From Candidatus Thorarchaeota archaeon (GTDB lineage Archaea; Asgardarchaeota; Thorarchaeia; Thorarchaeales; Thorarchaeaceae), in the NCBI GenBank assembly GCA_019057475.1, contig DXJO01000001.1, forward strand, positions 38,028 to 102,027: 64,000 bases of DNA, written 5' to 3'. Each line of letters opens with the position of its first letter. Position 1 is the stretch's first letter. The notes beneath the pieces were generated by a model. It was given only the letters and a program-made list of their open reading frames with translations, was not told the DNA's origin and did no database searches. Shown here one piece after another: positions 23,610 to 40,053 of the stretch. The translations under genes and the position numbers were made by a program.

Positions 23610-25978
23610 GTGGCTTCGAAGTGCACCCATATGCTGCGCATTGGGAGGAAAGCAATTCTAATTACATTTACACTTAGCATGTTACTACTTGTGTTCGTAG
23701 TGACTCCTGCTTCAGCGATTTATGTTTCAGCGACGCAGGAAATCCACTCACAAAGTCTTGACATAACTGATGAGAACAAAGGATACGTTTACAGCAGTTA
23801 TCCACCATTTGGAACGCGTGACGCACTCTGGCTAGATATCAACCAAGATGTTGGCCTGAATGTGTACCAATACCATAGTATTGGTTGGACTGACTCCGTT
23901 GGATTTGTGAATGGTCCTGCTGAAACAGAGTTTTCCTTTTATGGTCAGAATAGCCGCAAACCTGGTTGGTTGGCCAATAGGTCATATCTTCCAGTCTTCA
24001 CAGAGTCTGTTAATACAACGAATGACGACCTAGAATTAACAGTGGACCAGAAGCGTGTTGTGTTTCCGCTAGGGCTTGGTCAGCAGAGTTCAATCATCTT
24101 GGAGCCGTACCTATATCACAGCGGCACACTCATGCTGTCAACCGAGGAGTTCATTCACATCACCATAGCCTCTAGAACGGATTCCGTTTCAATGAATGTG
24201 ATAGTGTACGATCCAGAGGGACACAATTTGGGATCATTGGCCCTCAATGGAGGGAACGTGGGAGTTCTCCCATTCCGACCATCTGGTCCGGGAATGTATA
24301 CAATCAGGCTATACCCCACTACTAGTGTAGAAGGACTCCTAGCGGCTGAAATCCTGCCCGTGGCTGTTACTCCACAGACGATTTAGTATGGCGAAGTCGT
24401 GGAGGTGTACTCTCTGGAAGTGAGTTCATTGTGGAAGGCGGTTCTGGATCCATAGTAATTACAGAGAAGGCTCCCACCACTCGTACATACAAGTTCAGTT
24501 CCAACTCAACCCATGCTGGCAAGATACAGTATTCACTAAACTATCCGGAGTTCTTCTGGCCGGTGCATACGCCCTTCAATCCAGAACTGAGGGTCACTAG
24601 CGATGCTTTTGTAGGGGACTACGCCGTTGCGAGATATCAAACCATGCTGGGGGGCAATATTGGACAGTATTACTACCAGTCGTTCCAAGGCGAGTCTTAC
24701 TATCTAACAGTCATCGGGATGGACGAGGTTGTCTATTTGATATACAATGAGGAGATGAGCTTAGGCCAACTGCCGCTGAACGAAGCCTTCTACCTTGAGA
24801 ACAACCGTCTCAACCCCCAGACAGTGGCGTATCAGCTATCGCTTGACGAAGATGCCATTTTGAAAGTCAACTCGACAGAGAACGTAGGCAACTATGGCTG
24901 GAACCTCTTCACTGTGCTCGATGATATGATGTACCGGTCACTCCAAGTGACTGATGGTCATTCGTTTCATAATGCTCCCAGTTACTGCCTTCCGGCCGGT
25001 GAGTACGTGGTCGTTGGCACTGGGAACTTGCCATCAAACGGCTACTACCAATTCACTCTGGGCCCGGTTTTTGACGACCTCAGTACATTGGAGGTTTCTG
25101 TTGGCCGTGCTGTGGGCGTTCGGTTCGATGTAAGTGCCATTGACTGGTACCGCACCAACATATCGCTGCTGACTCAGGACAATATCACTGTGTCAGCTGA
25201 CTATGACTTCTACAACACCTATGGTCTGCTTGTATCCGGCTATAGCCTGCTTCTTGGCAACAGAGAGGTTGGAGGACATTAGATGGCGTTTGGTGCCAAC
25301 CACACAACGAGGACTTTCTCCAGTCTTGCAGATGGTTTCCTAGTGGTTGTAATCAGCCCCTACGAAGTTAAGAACAACACTCCAGGTCCCGGAAATCTGT
25401 ACCATGACTACACTGTTGAGTACGGAATAGAGTTCGAGGACTACTCGTCAGATATCTTCAACGTAACTTCTTCAATCGCAGTAGATGCGACATCAGCATC
25501 CTATAACTTCACCCTTGGTGACCCTGGTGATGCGTCCGAAGTCTATGGACTCTCCATAGCTTGTGAAGAGGGCGTCTGGTACAATGTTTCGGTAATAGTC
25601 AGTGATGTCAGTTCTTGGTATGCTCTTGCATACCAGAACTATGAGGGTTGGACACAGTATTTGGACTGGCCAAGTCTAAGCGATCGACTCGTTGGCTCAA
25701 CAGGAAGCGAGGCAGCCTTCCAAATGGGGGCAATCAGCAATGAGATTTTCCTATCGTTCACCGCGACAAGGGTACTTGCTGGTGAGGGGAGTTTCTACGT
25801 GGAGATCACCCCACTTGTAAGCAATCAGCTTGAAGAGTTCATCCTCGAATACCAAGGAGTTCCACCTGTGACAATCGATTGGGTTCTACTAGGTGGCGGC
25901 ATCGGCGTTGTCGCTGTGGTCATTGTTGGACGTCTTCTAATCGCCAAGAAGAAGGGCAAAAGCCTCTACTCACCATAG
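23610..25978 (+). pseudogene. Disrupted surface-protein gene, paralog of 37681-40053
   Basis: Three consecutive ORFs align collinearly to the intact paralog. Breaks: TAG 24384-86, a 1-nt deletion near 24404, TAG 25280-82. Confidence 0.8.
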
Positions 25979-27962: not shown

Positions 27963-29168
27963 TTACCACAACTGATACTCTCTCTTTACAAAGCCCTTCC
28001 ATACGATTGGGAGCTTCATGATTACTTCCTCCGCGATGCTGGAGATGGAACTCTGAATTGCTTCTAGATCATAGTCTCCATAGCACTCGATGTTTACAGC
28101 CCTCGGTTCGGTGATTGGTGCGCCGATTTGGCTGACCAAGTAGCAGTATACTTGATCCAGATCGGGGTGTTCCTTTGTGACACGCTCTACAATCTCTCTC
28201 GCGGCTACGTTGTAGGTTTTTCCAACATGAGAAACCGGGTTCTTGCCAGCGGCAGCCTCTAGTGTCATGGGTCTGTAGGGAGTTATCAGACCGTTAGCTC
28301 TATTGCCTCGGCCCACCTGTCCATCGTCACCATGCTCCGCCGACGTTCCAGTAACCGTCAAGTAGTATAGACCTTCATCGGGTGCGTCAGCGCCGTTGAC
28401 GTCCACAGTTACCTCTAAGTCCGTAATCTTGGATGCTAGGTCCAGCAATAGGTCCTTGGTGCCCTGCATCACATTGGCGTACTCGTGTGCGTCTTTTGTT
28501 TCCGAGGATATGATTGCAGACGCAATCTGGAGGTGAATCTTGTCGCCAACTCTGGTTCCCATCACCTTGATGTCTTCACCTATCTGAGGCCATTTTTTCT
28601 TGGTCTTGGAATCGTTGAGAAGATACTCAGATTTGAGGGTGAGTTCTTCAGTGGGAGACAATGGCGCATAGCCGACACCGAAGCTTGTGTCATTTGCTCT
28701 GGGAACCTCGAGTTCATAGTCGAAGTTGCCAACAAGGTCCGTGCTCCCCGCCCTTATCTTGTAGTCAACGATAACATCCGAATTCACATCCAAGTGTGGC
28801 AGATCCTTACTAAGCCACTCACGAGTGTGCTCTATTGCGAACTTACCCACTGGTACTTGATTCTTGAAATCCTTCCCCACGATACCCACAGCTCGACCGC
28901 TCATTAGAATGTAGATCGGCTCAATGACGTCGCCTCCACCAAAACGTGCGTTCGACTGCCCGCCGACAAGAAGCACCTTGTCGACATTGTGATGTTGAAC
29001 TCTCCCGAATACCTCCAAGTAGTACTCGCTCAATCTTACAGACAGTTCCTCTGCGGCTTTGTCACAGAGTGTATCTGGATGACCCTTGCCTTTGCGCTCC
29101 ACGACCTCAACTCTCTGCTGAGGAACTGGAAGGCTCCCTCCACGCGTGACTTCAATATTCATTGTCAA
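27963..29168 (-). CDS. mat: S-adenosylmethionine synthetase, archaeal type
   Basis: VERKGKGHPDTLCD, HHNVDK, ANDTSFGVGYAP, GEDIKVMG, GDDGQVGRGNR, AGKNPVSHVGK. Confidence 0.97.
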   Translation of the reverse strand: MTMNIEVTRGGSLPVPQQRVEVVERKGKGHPDTLCDKAAEELSVRLSEYYLEVFGRVQHHNVDKVLLVGGQSNARFGGGDVIEPIYILMSGRAVGIVGKDFKNQVPVGKFAIEHTREWLSKDLPHLDVNSDVIVDYKIRAGSTDLVGNFDYELEVPRANDTSFGVGYAPLSPTEELTLKSEYLLNDSKTKKKWPQIGEDIKVMGTRVGDKIHLQIASAIISSETKDAHEYANVMQGTKDLLLDLASKITDLEVTVDVNGADAPDEGLYYLTVTGTSAEHGDDGQVGRGNRANGLITPYRPMTLEAAAGKNPVSHVGKTYNVAAREIVERVTKEHPDLDQVYCYLVSQIGAPITEPRAVNIECYGDYDLEAIQSSISSIAEEVIMKLPIVWKGFVKREYQLW

Positions 29169-29224
29169 TCAACTCGTCTTTCCAGCGGGCCTGAAGTGAA
29201 ACTACTTAAGTCTATACATACCTG

Positions 29225-29270
29225 ATTCTCATGGGTAATACTGCAAGTAATATCAATTACCCCTAGGAAT
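29225..29270. promoter_or_regulatory. Array of three ATTAC-N5-GTAAT-like sites in the mat / HTH-CBS divergent promoter
   Basis: ATTCTCATGGGTAAT (29225-39), AATACTGCAAGTAAT (29237-51), ATTACCCCTAGGAAT (29256-70). Confidence 0.5.
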
Positions 29271-29288
29271 ACAAGGTGGGGTTCCAGT

Positions 29289-29822
29289 TTGATAACATCG
29301 GAGAGCATCCATCGGATGAGAAGAGAGGCAGGTCTAACTCAATCTGAACTTGCCATAGAAGTGGGAGTATCTCAGTCCTACATTGCGCGGATAGAGAATG
29401 GCACCCTTGACCCAAAACTATCGATTGCTAACAAAATTATCCAAGTATTCAACATCCGGAGTCCTCAACGGTGTGGAGATATCATGACTGCAAATCCCCT
29501 CACGATTGACGCTCGCAAATCTGTTTCAGTGGCTGTTCAAGCCATGCGCCAACGAAATTTCTCACAACTGCCTGTAGTACGTGGGGAACGAATCGTGGGG
29601 ATTGTCACAGAACGCGATATCGTGCGCAACCTCCAACATGACTTGGATACACTGTCCGTTCAGGCGATCATAAGCTCAGGTGGTGTGCCTACAGTTGATG
29701 AAAGCACACCCGTTGACGCAATCATACCGCTATTGGAGTCCTACCAAGCGGTTGTTATCCAGAATCTGGGGCGAGTCACCGGCATAATCTCTCGATCGGA
29801 TCTCCTGAGGGCTAAGAGGTGA
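29289..29822 (+). CDS. XRE-family HTH regulator with tandem CBS domains
   Basis: RREAGLTQSELAIEVGVSQSYIARIENG..DPKLS; CBS pair FSQLPVV...GIVTERD / GIISRSDLL. Confidence 0.93.
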   Translation: MITSESIHRMRREAGLTQSELAIEVGVSQSYIARIENGTLDPKLSIANKIIQVFNIRSPQRCGDIMTANPLTIDARKSVSVAVQAMRQRNFSQLPVVRGERIVGIVTERDIVRNLQHDLDTLSVQAIISSGGVPTVDESTPVDAIIPLLESYQAVVIQNLGRVTGIISRSDLLRAKR

Positions 29823-29932
29823 TTGGGTGAGCTGTTGTGCTGTACTCAGGAATGAGTTGCATTCATCTTGTCTGCCCCCGCAGAATGAATTATATGTTCT
29901 AACTAAGAGAGGACCTTGGAGTAGAAGAAATC

Positions 29933-30589
29933 GTGGCAAGTGAATTGGAAATCCTTGAGGACCTCCGCGAGGGCATAGACACTTTCGTGGAGCGCTGGTC
30001 GAAGATTCAGCGCAACTCAATGAAGTCCATTCAAGCGGTGACCAACACGCTAGTTCAGATTGAGCATCTTGATGGTCCCTTGGGAAAACTCCAAGGATTC
30101 AAGAACATACGTGAGAACACGAGGGGCAAGCTATTGGTCAATTTATTCGACAAGCTCGTGCCCTCTCTTGAAAGCTCTATCAAGGAATTCAGCAAGCTCA
30201 TGAAGATGTTTGAGAGTCTAAGGAAGAAGGTTTCGGATATCCAAACTTTCAATGAGTCCTTGAGAGGCATTCTTGATGAATCTTCAGACTTGGAAGATTT
30301 CGTAGGGTTCCTAGAGCTAATCATCATCAGTGTTCAGGACATACTGACGATGTTCGAGGCAGAGTTTCTGGTCAAGACGACCATCTTCCGAGACCTTGAG
30401 GAGGGAACTGTTGACCTGGCGGTTGTTAGCAATTACCTTACAGTCTGGATAGCTGAGCCGAACATCGAACCACATGCCTTAGAGAAGCTTCTGAAGGATT
30501 TGGATGAACACTTCGAGTTGCTACGAGATGTCTTTACTGGCAAGACGCATATCAGAATCCCCGACACTCACAGGAAGATGCCCTACTGA
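29933..30589 (+). CDS. CINP/C1orf109-like helical protein (candidate eukaryotic signature protein)
   Basis: C-terminal ILTMFEAEFLVKTTIFRDL...SNYLTVWIAEPNIE resembles the recalled CINP C-terminus; LGKLQGFKNIRENTRGK resembles the C1orf109 family; similar length. Confidence 0.6.
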   Translation: MASELEILEDLREGIDTFVERWSKIQRNSMKSIQAVTNTLVQIEHLDGPLGKLQGFKNIRENTRGKLLVNLFDKLVPSLESSIKEFSKLMKMFESLRKKVSDIQTFNESLRGILDESSDLEDFVGFLELIIISVQDILTMFEAEFLVKTTIFRDLEEGTVDLAVVSNYLTVWIAEPNIEPHALEKLLKDLDEHFELLRDVFTGKTHIRIPDTHRKMPY

Positions 30590-37680: not shown

Positions 37681-40053
37681 ATGCCGAAAGTTGGGAGAGT
37701 AGTATTATCTATCTTATTCACTAGTGTGTTACTTGCTGGTCAAGCAATGCCGATTGTTAATGCGGCCTATGCCACATTATACGAGGTCACATATTCGCAA
37801 GACTTGCAGGCTGATGATAACGGTCATACATACCTCTATGTCCCTGAGAATGATCCTTTGTTTTACTCCGCGTCAGGGTTGGTTCATGACTCAGATATGA
37901 ATTACGCTGAATATCTGTACTACCAAGACTATTGGGTCAGAGCCCCTCATTCCATGTCGGGAATAGGTGAAAAGAAGGATTTCATTCAAGCCAGCGCAAT
38001 TACCATAGCGGATTGGCTTCTCGATGCATCGATAATGCCGAAGTTCTATGACTTTGCAAACTCAACGAATTCGTATGATCTGGACATCGATAACAAGCAA
38101 GTCTATTTTGGTGTTCCAGTAGGTGGTGAGGTTTCCGTAATCCTTGACCCTATGGTAGCATATTTTGGAGTGTTCAATGTCACTACGGAAGAGTTCTTTC
38201 ACCTTACTGTCACGTCCCGCCAGGATTTGACAGATATAATAATCATCATTCAAGACCAAATGGGACGCTTAATGAACTATGACTACCTACAGAATGGAAA
38301 CATCCATGTAATTCCATTTGCTCCTGATGGTCCGGGGATGTATGTTATCGGAATTTACGCCACCGCTGATAATGCAGGTCTTCCGATTGTAGACCTCTTA
38401 CTGAAGGCGATTACTCCTGATGAATTGCTACTAGGTGGGATTGTTGAAGGGGTACTGTCAGGAAGTGAGCTTGTTGTAAAGAACGGCGCTGGAGATACAG
38501 TGCACCAAGAAAAAGCACCATCAGCTCACACATTCAAATTCAGTTCCAACTACACCCATCCTGGAAAACTAAGATACTCCATGAACTTTCCAGAGCTAGA
38601 TGACGATGTTTATGACCCCTTTGAGACCGAGCTCCAGATCACTACCGATACCACCTATACAATGACTGGTGGGTATGCCAAGTATCTTTCAATGCCTGAC
38701 CCTAATGGCGATACTATCTATTATCAGTCCTTCCAGAATGAAACATATTACTTCACGATAATGGGAATGGAAGAAACCACGTACACACTTCTAAATGAGA
38801 TACCCGATGTCCCACTACTCCCATTGAGTACACCGTTCTATCTTGAGAGCTGGAATATCGGTGCACAGAGGTTTGCATATAGACTTCCTCTCGCCACTGA
38901 CTCACTTCTCAAAATTAATACTACTAACCCTTCAGGCTTCTCATGGAGGATCTACAGAACTTTCGGGGACAATATCTATCGGGTCGCGTATCCTACGGAT
39001 GCATCATCCTTCCATACTGCTAAACCACTTTATCTTCCAGCTGGCAGCTACCTTGTTGTTGGAACTGCAGGAGGAATGGACTACAACGCCGTCACTCAAT
39101 TTACACTTGGGCCAGTGTTGGATGGTGTAGGCGGAGTGGCTGTTGACAACGGTGGAATCATTGGTGTTCGAGTGCCAACTGATGCAATGACCTTCTACAG
39201 GGTGAATGTTACTCTCGAGACTCATGACAACGTTTCTGTAAGAGCTGATGTAGATATTCTGAACCGATATGGTATCATCCTTCGCGGAACTCAACCTCAA
39301 CTTGGCAATATTCAATCAGGAACCGGCTGGGTTGAATACGGTTCAAACCGTAGTACGGTGGTGATGGGGCTCCCGCCCTTTTATGATATGTTCTGCGATG
39401 GCTTTGGAATCATCGCCATAAGTCCATACGAAGTCCGGAATAACACAGGCTTTTCTCTTACCAACGAATTTGGCACCTACACGGCAGACTATTCAGTCAC
39501 CGTAGAAGACTACTTGTCTGGTTTTATGAATGGGACAAATACTGCTACAGTAACTAGCAGTCCTCAGTGGTCTAACTTTACTCTAGGTGAACCAGGAGAT
39601 CCCTTTGAATGGTATATGATTGACATGTCCTGCGAAGCTGGCACATGGTTCAATGTTACATACTTGGCCCAGGATATTTCCTCCATGAACCAGATTTTCA
39701 TCTATCAAAGACACAAAGGCTGTGTCCAGATGTTGGACCTCGACAATAGTCTTGTGAACACATTTGCTGGAGACACAAGCAGAGCCCAATTCCAGTTTGG
39801 TAGCATCTCAGATGGTCTGTATATCATCTTCTCAATTGCTCGTGATACAGGATTGGAAGGTTCACTTGACGTCTTGATATCACCCTACTTGACAAATCAA
39901 TACGAGTATCCACCTGCGCCTGTGTACGTTGCATCGCCCTCGGCGGGCGGTATCATACCACTCGCCATAGATCCTCTCATCCTATTTGGTGGAGTTGGAA
40001 TCGCAGTAGTGATAGTTGCTGTTGTCCTCGTTAAGAAGAGAGGTGCTGCATAA
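37681..40053 (+). CDS. Secreted beta-rich surface protein with C-terminal TM anchor
   Basis: Signal peptide, aromatic/beta-rich body, TM helix plus KKRG tail; intact paralog of 23610-25978. Confidence 0.8.
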   Translation: MPKVGRVVLSILFTSVLLAGQAMPIVNAAYATLYEVTYSQDLQADDNGHTYLYVPENDPLFYSASGLVHDSDMNYAEYLYYQDYWVRAPHSMSGIGEKKDFIQASAITIADWLLDASIMPKFYDFANSTNSYDLDIDNKQVYFGVPVGGEVSVILDPMVAYFGVFNVTTEEFFHLTVTSRQDLTDIIIIIQDQMGRLMNYDYLQNGNIHVIPFAPDGPGMYVIGIYATADNAGLPIVDLLLKAITPDELLLGGIVEGVLSGSELVVKNGAGDTVHQEKAPSAHTFKFSSNYTHPGKLRYSMNFPELDDDVYDPFETELQITTDTTYTMTGGYAKYLSMPDPNGDTIYYQSFQNETYYFTIMGMEETTYTLLNEIPDVPLLPLSTPFYLESWNIGAQRFAYRLPLATDSLLKINTTNPSGFSWRIYRTFGDNIYRVAYPTDASSFHTAKPLYLPAGSYLVVGTAGGMDYNAVTQFTLGPVLDGVGGVAVDNGGIIGVRVPTDAMTFYRVNVTLETHDNVSVRADVDILNRYGIILRGTQPQLGNIQSGTGWVEYGSNRSTVVMGLPPFYDMFCDGFGIIAISPYEVRNNTGFSLTNEFGTYTADYSVTVEDYLSGFMNGTNTATVTSSPQWSNFTLGEPGDPFEWYMIDMSCEAGTWFNVTYLAQDISSMNQIFIYQRHKGCVQMLDLDNSLVNTFAGDTSRAQFQFGSISDGLYIIFSIARDTGLEGSLDVLISPYLTNQYEYPPAPVYVASPSAGGIIPLAIDPLILFGGVGIAVVIVAVVLVKKRGAA

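Follow-up and report, generated by a model that had tools for sequence, protein, structure and literature searches.

Does the Thorarchaeal gene described here descend from the ancestor of the two adaptor subunits of the eukaryotic 55LCC complex, and what would its product act on in an archaeal cell? Human C1orf109 and CINP pair as a T-shaped heterodimer, with the C1orf109 helix1-helix2 loop packed against CINP, and two such dimers form a funnel together with the N-domains of SPATA5/SPATA5L1 (PMC12019325, PMC11055677). The same adaptor scheme is found in plants (PMC12332008); each of the two eukaryotic paralogues serves AAA+ N-domains as an adaptor in plants as well as in humans (PMC11055677, PMC12019325, PMC12332008). 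We examined a 64,000-nucleotide stretch of a Candidatus Thorarchaeota archaeon (hereafter the window) containing an open reading frame that an earlier, sequence-only reading had described as an all-helical protein of 218 residues resembling both adaptors (Table 1).

The open reading frame is a real gene, the Thorarchaeote member of its family. More than 120 Thorarchaeal proteins conserve it at 66 to 82% identity, those with a name coming mostly from Thorarchaeota. Its reality, and the probable presence of a promoter of its own, also follow from a conserved upstream motif and a GGAG. The promoter-like motif is represented by 26 distinct upstream sites among the Thorarchaeal loci, and with a matrix made from these orthologous sites the gene's own site reaches 33.8, compared with 17.7 for the runner-up in the genome; GGAG recurs upstream in most Thorarchaeal relatives. 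The motif is absent from both Cdc48 genes of the genome, and a scan for sigma-70 promoters and terminators, which is ill-suited to archaea, found nothing. An AlphaFold2 model of the protein (mean pLDDT 85.4, pTM 0.82) agrees with the all-helical description: it consists of five long helices (residues 2-46, 54-111, 118-157, 162-174, and 180-201) and no strands, and the motifs quoted earlier are present in the translation.

Table 1. Features of the CINP/C1orf109-like locus (window positions)
Feature	Position	Strand	Description
SAM synthetase and HTH-CBS genes	27963-29822	- and +	divergent pair; Pfam
Promoter-like element GCAGAA-N4-TTATA	29870..29896	+	conserved across Thorarchaeal loci (motif at 29880-29894); putatively BRE/TATA-like
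GGAG	29918..29921	+	Shine-Dalgarno-like; 11 nt 5' of the GTG start
CINP/C1orf109-like gene	29933..30589	+	GTG start, 218 aa, five-helix bundle
Residues 19-102	29987..30238	+	helix 1 (invariant W22), helix1-helix2 loop, helix 2; PF15011 match
Residues 135-182	30335..30478	+	CINP-type C-terminal signature: M140, E144, K148, Y168, W172, P176

The likeness of the C-terminus to human CINP, first proposed in the sequence-only reading, is reproduced by HMMER and becomes significant once profiles are used. With the single sequence, the best PDB match is human CINP, over the C-terminal signature segment, at an E value of 0.057, which is not significant alone. A profile of Thorarchaeal proteins only reaches human CINP at 1e-3, and a diverse Asgard profile to which distant members from whole genomes were added (A2) reaches it at 5e-9 over positions 8-184, with the next unrelated match at 0.013 and human C1orf109 at 0.56. 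A profile built without Thorarchaeal members (A3) gives 7e-8 for human CINP and 4.4e-3 for human C1orf109. The proposed resemblance of the N-terminus to the C1orf109 family is likewise borne out, as the top Pfam match is the CA109-like family (PF15011; C1orf109/AIRIM, plant OPENER), over residues 19-102 at an E value of 6.5e-6. The score of 26.5 bits lies 0.5 bit short of the 27-bit cut-off, a threshold that the 218-aa protein itself thus misses; the same model matches 52 of 52 relatives and 18 of the 20 diverse members of profile A3 (best E value, 1.6e-14), and the Hodarchaeal-clade relative P0145 exceeds the cut-off with 35.3 bits. The nearest clusters in the ESM Atlas are eukaryotic and C1orf109-like (0.94-0.95, the tool's recognition being below its mark), whereas the human C1orf109 sequence is a weak match throughout (E values from 0.56 to 0.004). 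Identity to human CINP is 14-18%.

Comparisons of fold lead to the same two proteins. The top five Foldseek rows for the 218-aa protein are CINP or C1orf109 chains, the first three of them CINP, with E values from 1.4e-3 to 2.2e-2, none reaching 0.001. VIA-align also ranks a CINP chain first (Z 14.7, rmsd 3.1, 167 residues aligned) and aligns C1orf109 at Z 13.2 (rmsd 4.0, 183 residues), the five-helix fold being common to both. Designed bundles score between CINP and C1orf109, one of them within 1 Z unit of CINP, and the next natural protein reaches 11.4; because de novo helical bundles attain Z 13-14, the fold alone is weak evidence. For P0145 (model pLDDT 92), the first 11 Foldseek rows are all CINP or C1orf109 chains (best E value, 9e-5), with TM-scores of 0.67 to CINP and 0.71 to C1orf109 and VIA Z values of 17.0 and 15.8, respectively. 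A fold search of the ESM Atlas returned nothing above a TM-score of 0.50. The scores of the designed bundles, together with the weak single-sequence CINP match and a PF15011 score under the cut-off, are what one would cite in favor of a chance likeness of a generic helical bundle. Yet independent methods all put CINP and C1orf109 first, CINP shares the conserved W, M-Y/F-x-x-E, Y-L-x-x-W, and P columns, and the near-full-length profile match at 5e-9 in practice refutes this explanation, which we consider extremely improbable. The likeness thus extends beyond a generic coiled coil, the point on which the sequence-only reading had asked to be checked, and fold matches and sequence profiles together make homology to CINP and C1orf109 convincing, to the point of near certainty.

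At the level of single residues, the columns conserved across Asgard members are W22, Q26, S29, L53, F56, L67, L79, F86, I137, M140, E142, E144, Y168, L169, W172, E175, and P176. The Thorarchaeal protein is like human CINP (PDB 8CIH, 8RHN, 9LGO, 9GWJ) in its length of about 200 aa, its five helices, and its C-terminal signature. In the HMMER alignment to CINP, V147, N167, and T170 (the last nearly invariant) align with CINP L162, S181, and S184 (numbering mapped with a 2-residue offset on chain 8cih_A), the L162 and S184 positions being kept as V147 and T170; these three CINP residues are required for complex formation (PMC11055677). Unlike human CINP, the protein has no second paralogue as a partner and lacks the N-terminal PRKP/RKIK motifs (PMC11055677), and the GTPBP4 segment on which CINP docks is without a counterpart in archaea. 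The helix1-helix2 loop carries the conserved hydrophobic residues L53 and F56, which would sit in the loop by which C1orf109 grips CINP, a correspondence by element and not residue by residue with C1orf109 L63, L69, and L73.

The suspicion that CINP-like Asgard proteins might already have been noted proved right: Köstlbacher et al. (bioRxiv 10.1101/2024.07.03.601958; Nat Microbiol 2026, PMC12962969, Fig. 4h) described Asgard CINP homologues ("CINPL"). According to their text, these are confined, among prokaryotes, to five major Asgard clades, and the eukaryotic sequences are monophyletic and placed next to Hodarchaeales with 99% UFBoot support (PMC12962969). The family found here is likewise Asgard-restricted, matches CINP over nearly its full length, and is spread patchily over several Asgard clades including Hodarchaeales; the 218-aa protein is a member of this published Asgard CINP-like family. 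In the article text of PMC12962969, C1orf109 appears only in the title of a reference, Cdc48 and p97 are not mentioned, and Thorarchaeota are not named. Two observations go beyond that text, namely, that one archaeal gene matches both the CINP and the C1orf109 families and that the RLP24-tail and GTPBP4-tail docking partners are missing in the carriers tested.

To describe the distribution of the gene, we scanned 400 Asgard genomes, in which carriers nearly always have one full-length copy. The gene is present in 80 of 85 Thorarchaeal genomes (family f1), 21 of 22 Hodarchaeotal genomes (f22, assigned through a matching record), 17 of 19 genomes of family f12, all five Sif/Borrarchaeal genomes (f16), and both genomes of f29, and in one genome each of f2, f6 (Ca. 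Asgardarchaeum abyssi), and f10. No copy turned up in the 135 genomes of the largest family, f9, which judging by its size is probably Lokiarchaeia, and the remaining Asgard families yielded no convincing copy. Six other Asgard families gave weak matches (E values of 1e-3 to 1e-2), which were set aside as partial coiled-coil similarities, several of them in long frames; one that was set aside (L112) sits on a very long branch. A phmmer search over 1.8 billion representatives gave 27 matches, of which the named ones are all Asgard, plus a repeat-protein artefact (P0132), and a search with a Hodarchaeal-clade profile gave five matches, all archaeal. The Thorarchaeal profile finds Hodarchaeal members at E values of about 1e-10, phmmer finds proteins labelled Hodarchaeota, and in an Asgard-only tree that also holds the Thorarchaeal members the Hodarchaeal ones form one clade with a support of 100; by sequence, then, the 218-aa protein belongs to one family with the Hodarchaeal proteins. 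In Sif/Borrarchaeal members (L037-L041, L043), about 35 additional residues separate helices 2 and 3, and an insertion of similar size occupies that place in two Thorarchaeal genomes (G069, G170). At one locus (L005:462-701, G200:C33), the intact gene is followed, some 0.8 kb downstream, by a partial copy of its C-terminal 60 residues, either a local duplication or an assembly artefact.

How does this family relate to the two eukaryotic adaptors? A six-frame search of the genome under study, which is 96% complete, found no second paralogue; its second HMM match, on contig C40, has neither the W nor the C-terminal motif and was dismissed as a generic coiled coil. That the gene occurs once per genome and matches both of the eukaryotic families, with like TM-scores to each, fits an origin of CINP and C1orf109 from one archaeal gene by duplication in early eukaryotes, which we regard as quite likely. 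Alternatively, the archaeal protein could be a CINP orthologue proper, the split between CINP and C1orf109 predating the sampled Asgard genes or C1orf109 having arisen separately. Human CINP does outscore human C1orf109 by far with each of the two diverse Asgard profiles given above, as with every Asgard profile, and a profile of the N-terminal part only matched neither human CINP nor human C1orf109. This alternative is nonetheless improbable in our judgment, given that the family-wide C1orf109 model matches Asgard members at E values down to that of the best A3 member, that the TM-scores do not separate the two proteins, that each genome has one copy, and that the published trees show the eukaryotic sequences as monophyletic, the inclusion of C1orf109 in them not being stated in the text (PMC12962969). 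Both halves of the T-shaped contact, a helix1-helix2 loop of the C1orf109 type and a C-terminal surface of the CINP type, appear to be united in this one chain, which makes self-association plausible; the human subunits CINP and C1orf109, when purified, are both monomeric on their own (PMC11055677).

Binding to AAA+ N-domains is common to both eukaryotic descendants, which makes a Cdc48/VAT cofactor the most economical reading of the ancestral role. The protein would dock on the N-domains of a general Cdc48/VAT unfoldase and hand over substrates, which would be other than the eukaryotic pre-60S pair RLP24/GTPBP4. We hold this adaptor mechanism as a tentative reading, somewhat short of an even chance. 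More doubtful is its fullest form, in which a self-assembled T-shaped dimer would cap a homohexameric Cdc48/VAT as a funnel, as the two-gene ancestor of the four-gene 55LCC and a dedicated adaptor for substrates that are not RLP24. Two full Cdc48 genes, N-domains included, are present in the genome, one on contig C21 (G000 C21:173143), adjoining an EF-1beta-like gene, and one on contig C47 (G000:C47:25621-27807, L117), about 42 kb before the CINP-like gene. In several Thorarchaeal and Hodarchaeal genomes (also G102:C2, G139:C6, and G211:C52), a Cdc48 gene and the CINP-like gene share a contig at a distance of 42-75 kb; the Thorarchaeal and Hodarchaeal Cdc48s belong to different subclades, and this placement is probably ordinary synteny. 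Both Thorarchaeal Cdc48s score highest against VAT and p97 (bit scores against VAT, p97, and AFG2A of 860, 675, and 633 for paralogue A and 820, 710, and 588 for paralogue B), and these scores, which are not a phylogeny, hint that paralogue A may be relatively closer to AFG2A than B is. A complex prediction with two copies of the protein (residues 1-203, 77-row alignment) and the N-domain of paralogue A scored 0.01 against a mark of 0.32, which is evidence neither way.

A true homologue could also have had a role independent of Cdc48 in archaea, for instance as a helical scaffold for a replication, translation, or RNA-processing factor, with recruitment to AFG2 occurring only in eukaryotes. 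In favor of such a role, neither linkage nor co-occurrence with Cdc48 is seen: Cdc48 N-domain genes are present in all 44 Asgard genomes tested, many of them without a CINP-like gene; no Cdc48 was found in the annotated flanks (up to 5-8 kb) of the relatives' CINP-like genes; and a FastTree phylogeny of 82 sequences, with two long branches from mis-picked frames, showed no broad Cdc48 clade confined to carriers. By the bit scores of the two Thorarchaeal Cdc48s, no AFG2-specific ATPase was found either. Information-processing genes are moreover frequent neighbors (TrpRS, MetRS, CysRS, RNA cyclase, an archaeosine-synthase-like gene, PolB, RNase HII, and an HflX-like GTPase), but these are ordinary housekeeping genes that are not common between lineages, and both eukaryotic paralogues act on AAA+ N-domains. 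We therefore treat a Cdc48-independent role as a serious possibility, though not a probable one.

The neighborhoods themselves are lineage-specific. Thorarchaeal copies lie beside the HTH-CBS and SAM synthetase genes, with TrpRS or a Na+/H+ exchanger; Sif/Borrarchaeal copies beside RNA cyclase and HypF; that of Asgardarchaeum beside MetRS; those of f12 beside phosphomutases; and Hodarchaeal copies beside the archaeosine-synthase-like gene. Most Thorarchaeal loci have the SAM synthetase/HTH-CBS pair ahead of the gene (clusters c1 and c2, 39 and 36 loci), an arrangement not seen in other Asgard lineages; in eight Thorarchaeal loci (L056:3435-5906 and seven others), an 824-aa DEAD-box-type helicase gene stands between HTH-CBS and the CINP-like gene. 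In Sif/Borrarchaea, an RNA 3'-phosphate cyclase gene directly precedes the CINP-like gene, and a 778-aa gene downstream, a Cdc48 candidate by size, is HypF. In the genome under study, Nog1 overlaps an RNA 3'-phosphate cyclase-like gene (L122:796-2910, judged by eye). Elsewhere in the window, three open reading frames at 23610-25978 (258, 283, and 231 aa) match one open reading frame of 782-814 aa in the close relatives L052 and L054 (cluster c32) and are a split or frameshifted gene, probably for a surface protein, which a 790-aa open reading frame at 37681-40053 resembles by eye.

A third possibility is that the full eukaryotic function is ancestral and that the protein helps Cdc48 to remodel eL24 or Nog1 on the nascent large subunit. 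This is the role of the homologues in human and plant cells (PMC12019325, PMC12332008), and the raw material is widespread, with eL24 present in 44 of 44 and Nog1 in 41 of 44 Asgard genomes tested; one carrier family, f12, even has a long lysine-rich C-terminal extension of eL24, with 101 and 53 residues after the last Cys (L251 in G060:C9; L261 in G022:C16; G011:C15). However, eL24 is single-copy in all 44 genomes, which leaves no placeholder paralogue, and the sizes do not fit: RLP24 binds both adaptors through residues 85-163 and CINP binds GTPBP4 452-474 as well as ES27A (PMC12019325), whereas in the genome under study the single eL24 has 66 aa and Nog1 has 356 aa, and Nog1 has at most 462 aa in any genome tested. 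Most carriers, like most Asgard in general, have 23-35 eL24 residues after the last Cys. The non-carrier family f13 has 44-50. Because eL24 and Nog1 are without the tails bound by eukaryotic CINP and C1orf109, an eL24-linked, pre-60S-type role here appears unlikely from the sequences, and we rate the ancestral remodeling of eL24 or Nog1 as very unlikely.

Taken as a system, the Thorarchaeal set resembles 55LCC, with its SPATA5-SPATA5L1 (AFG2A/B) pair, and the plant OPENER complex in having a lid-subunit homologue and two type II AAA+ Cdc48s with N-domains. It differs in having one lid gene instead of two, ATPases that by score are VAT/p97-like, no RLP24 placeholder, and a short Nog1, and with one lid gene, no RLP24, and a short Nog1 it is not a member of the 55LCC system as defined. 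The protein may still act on a general Cdc48 in the way that one lid subunit does. Since the carriers tested lack the RLP24 and GTPBP4 tails, the lid protein seems to predate the substrate known for it. The subunits of 55LCC are mutated in neurodevelopmental disease. Should binding to Cdc48 prove true, the Thorarchaeal protein and its unfoldase would provide a minimal two-protein model of 55LCC and would illustrate how ribosome maturation became a new target for an unfoldase.
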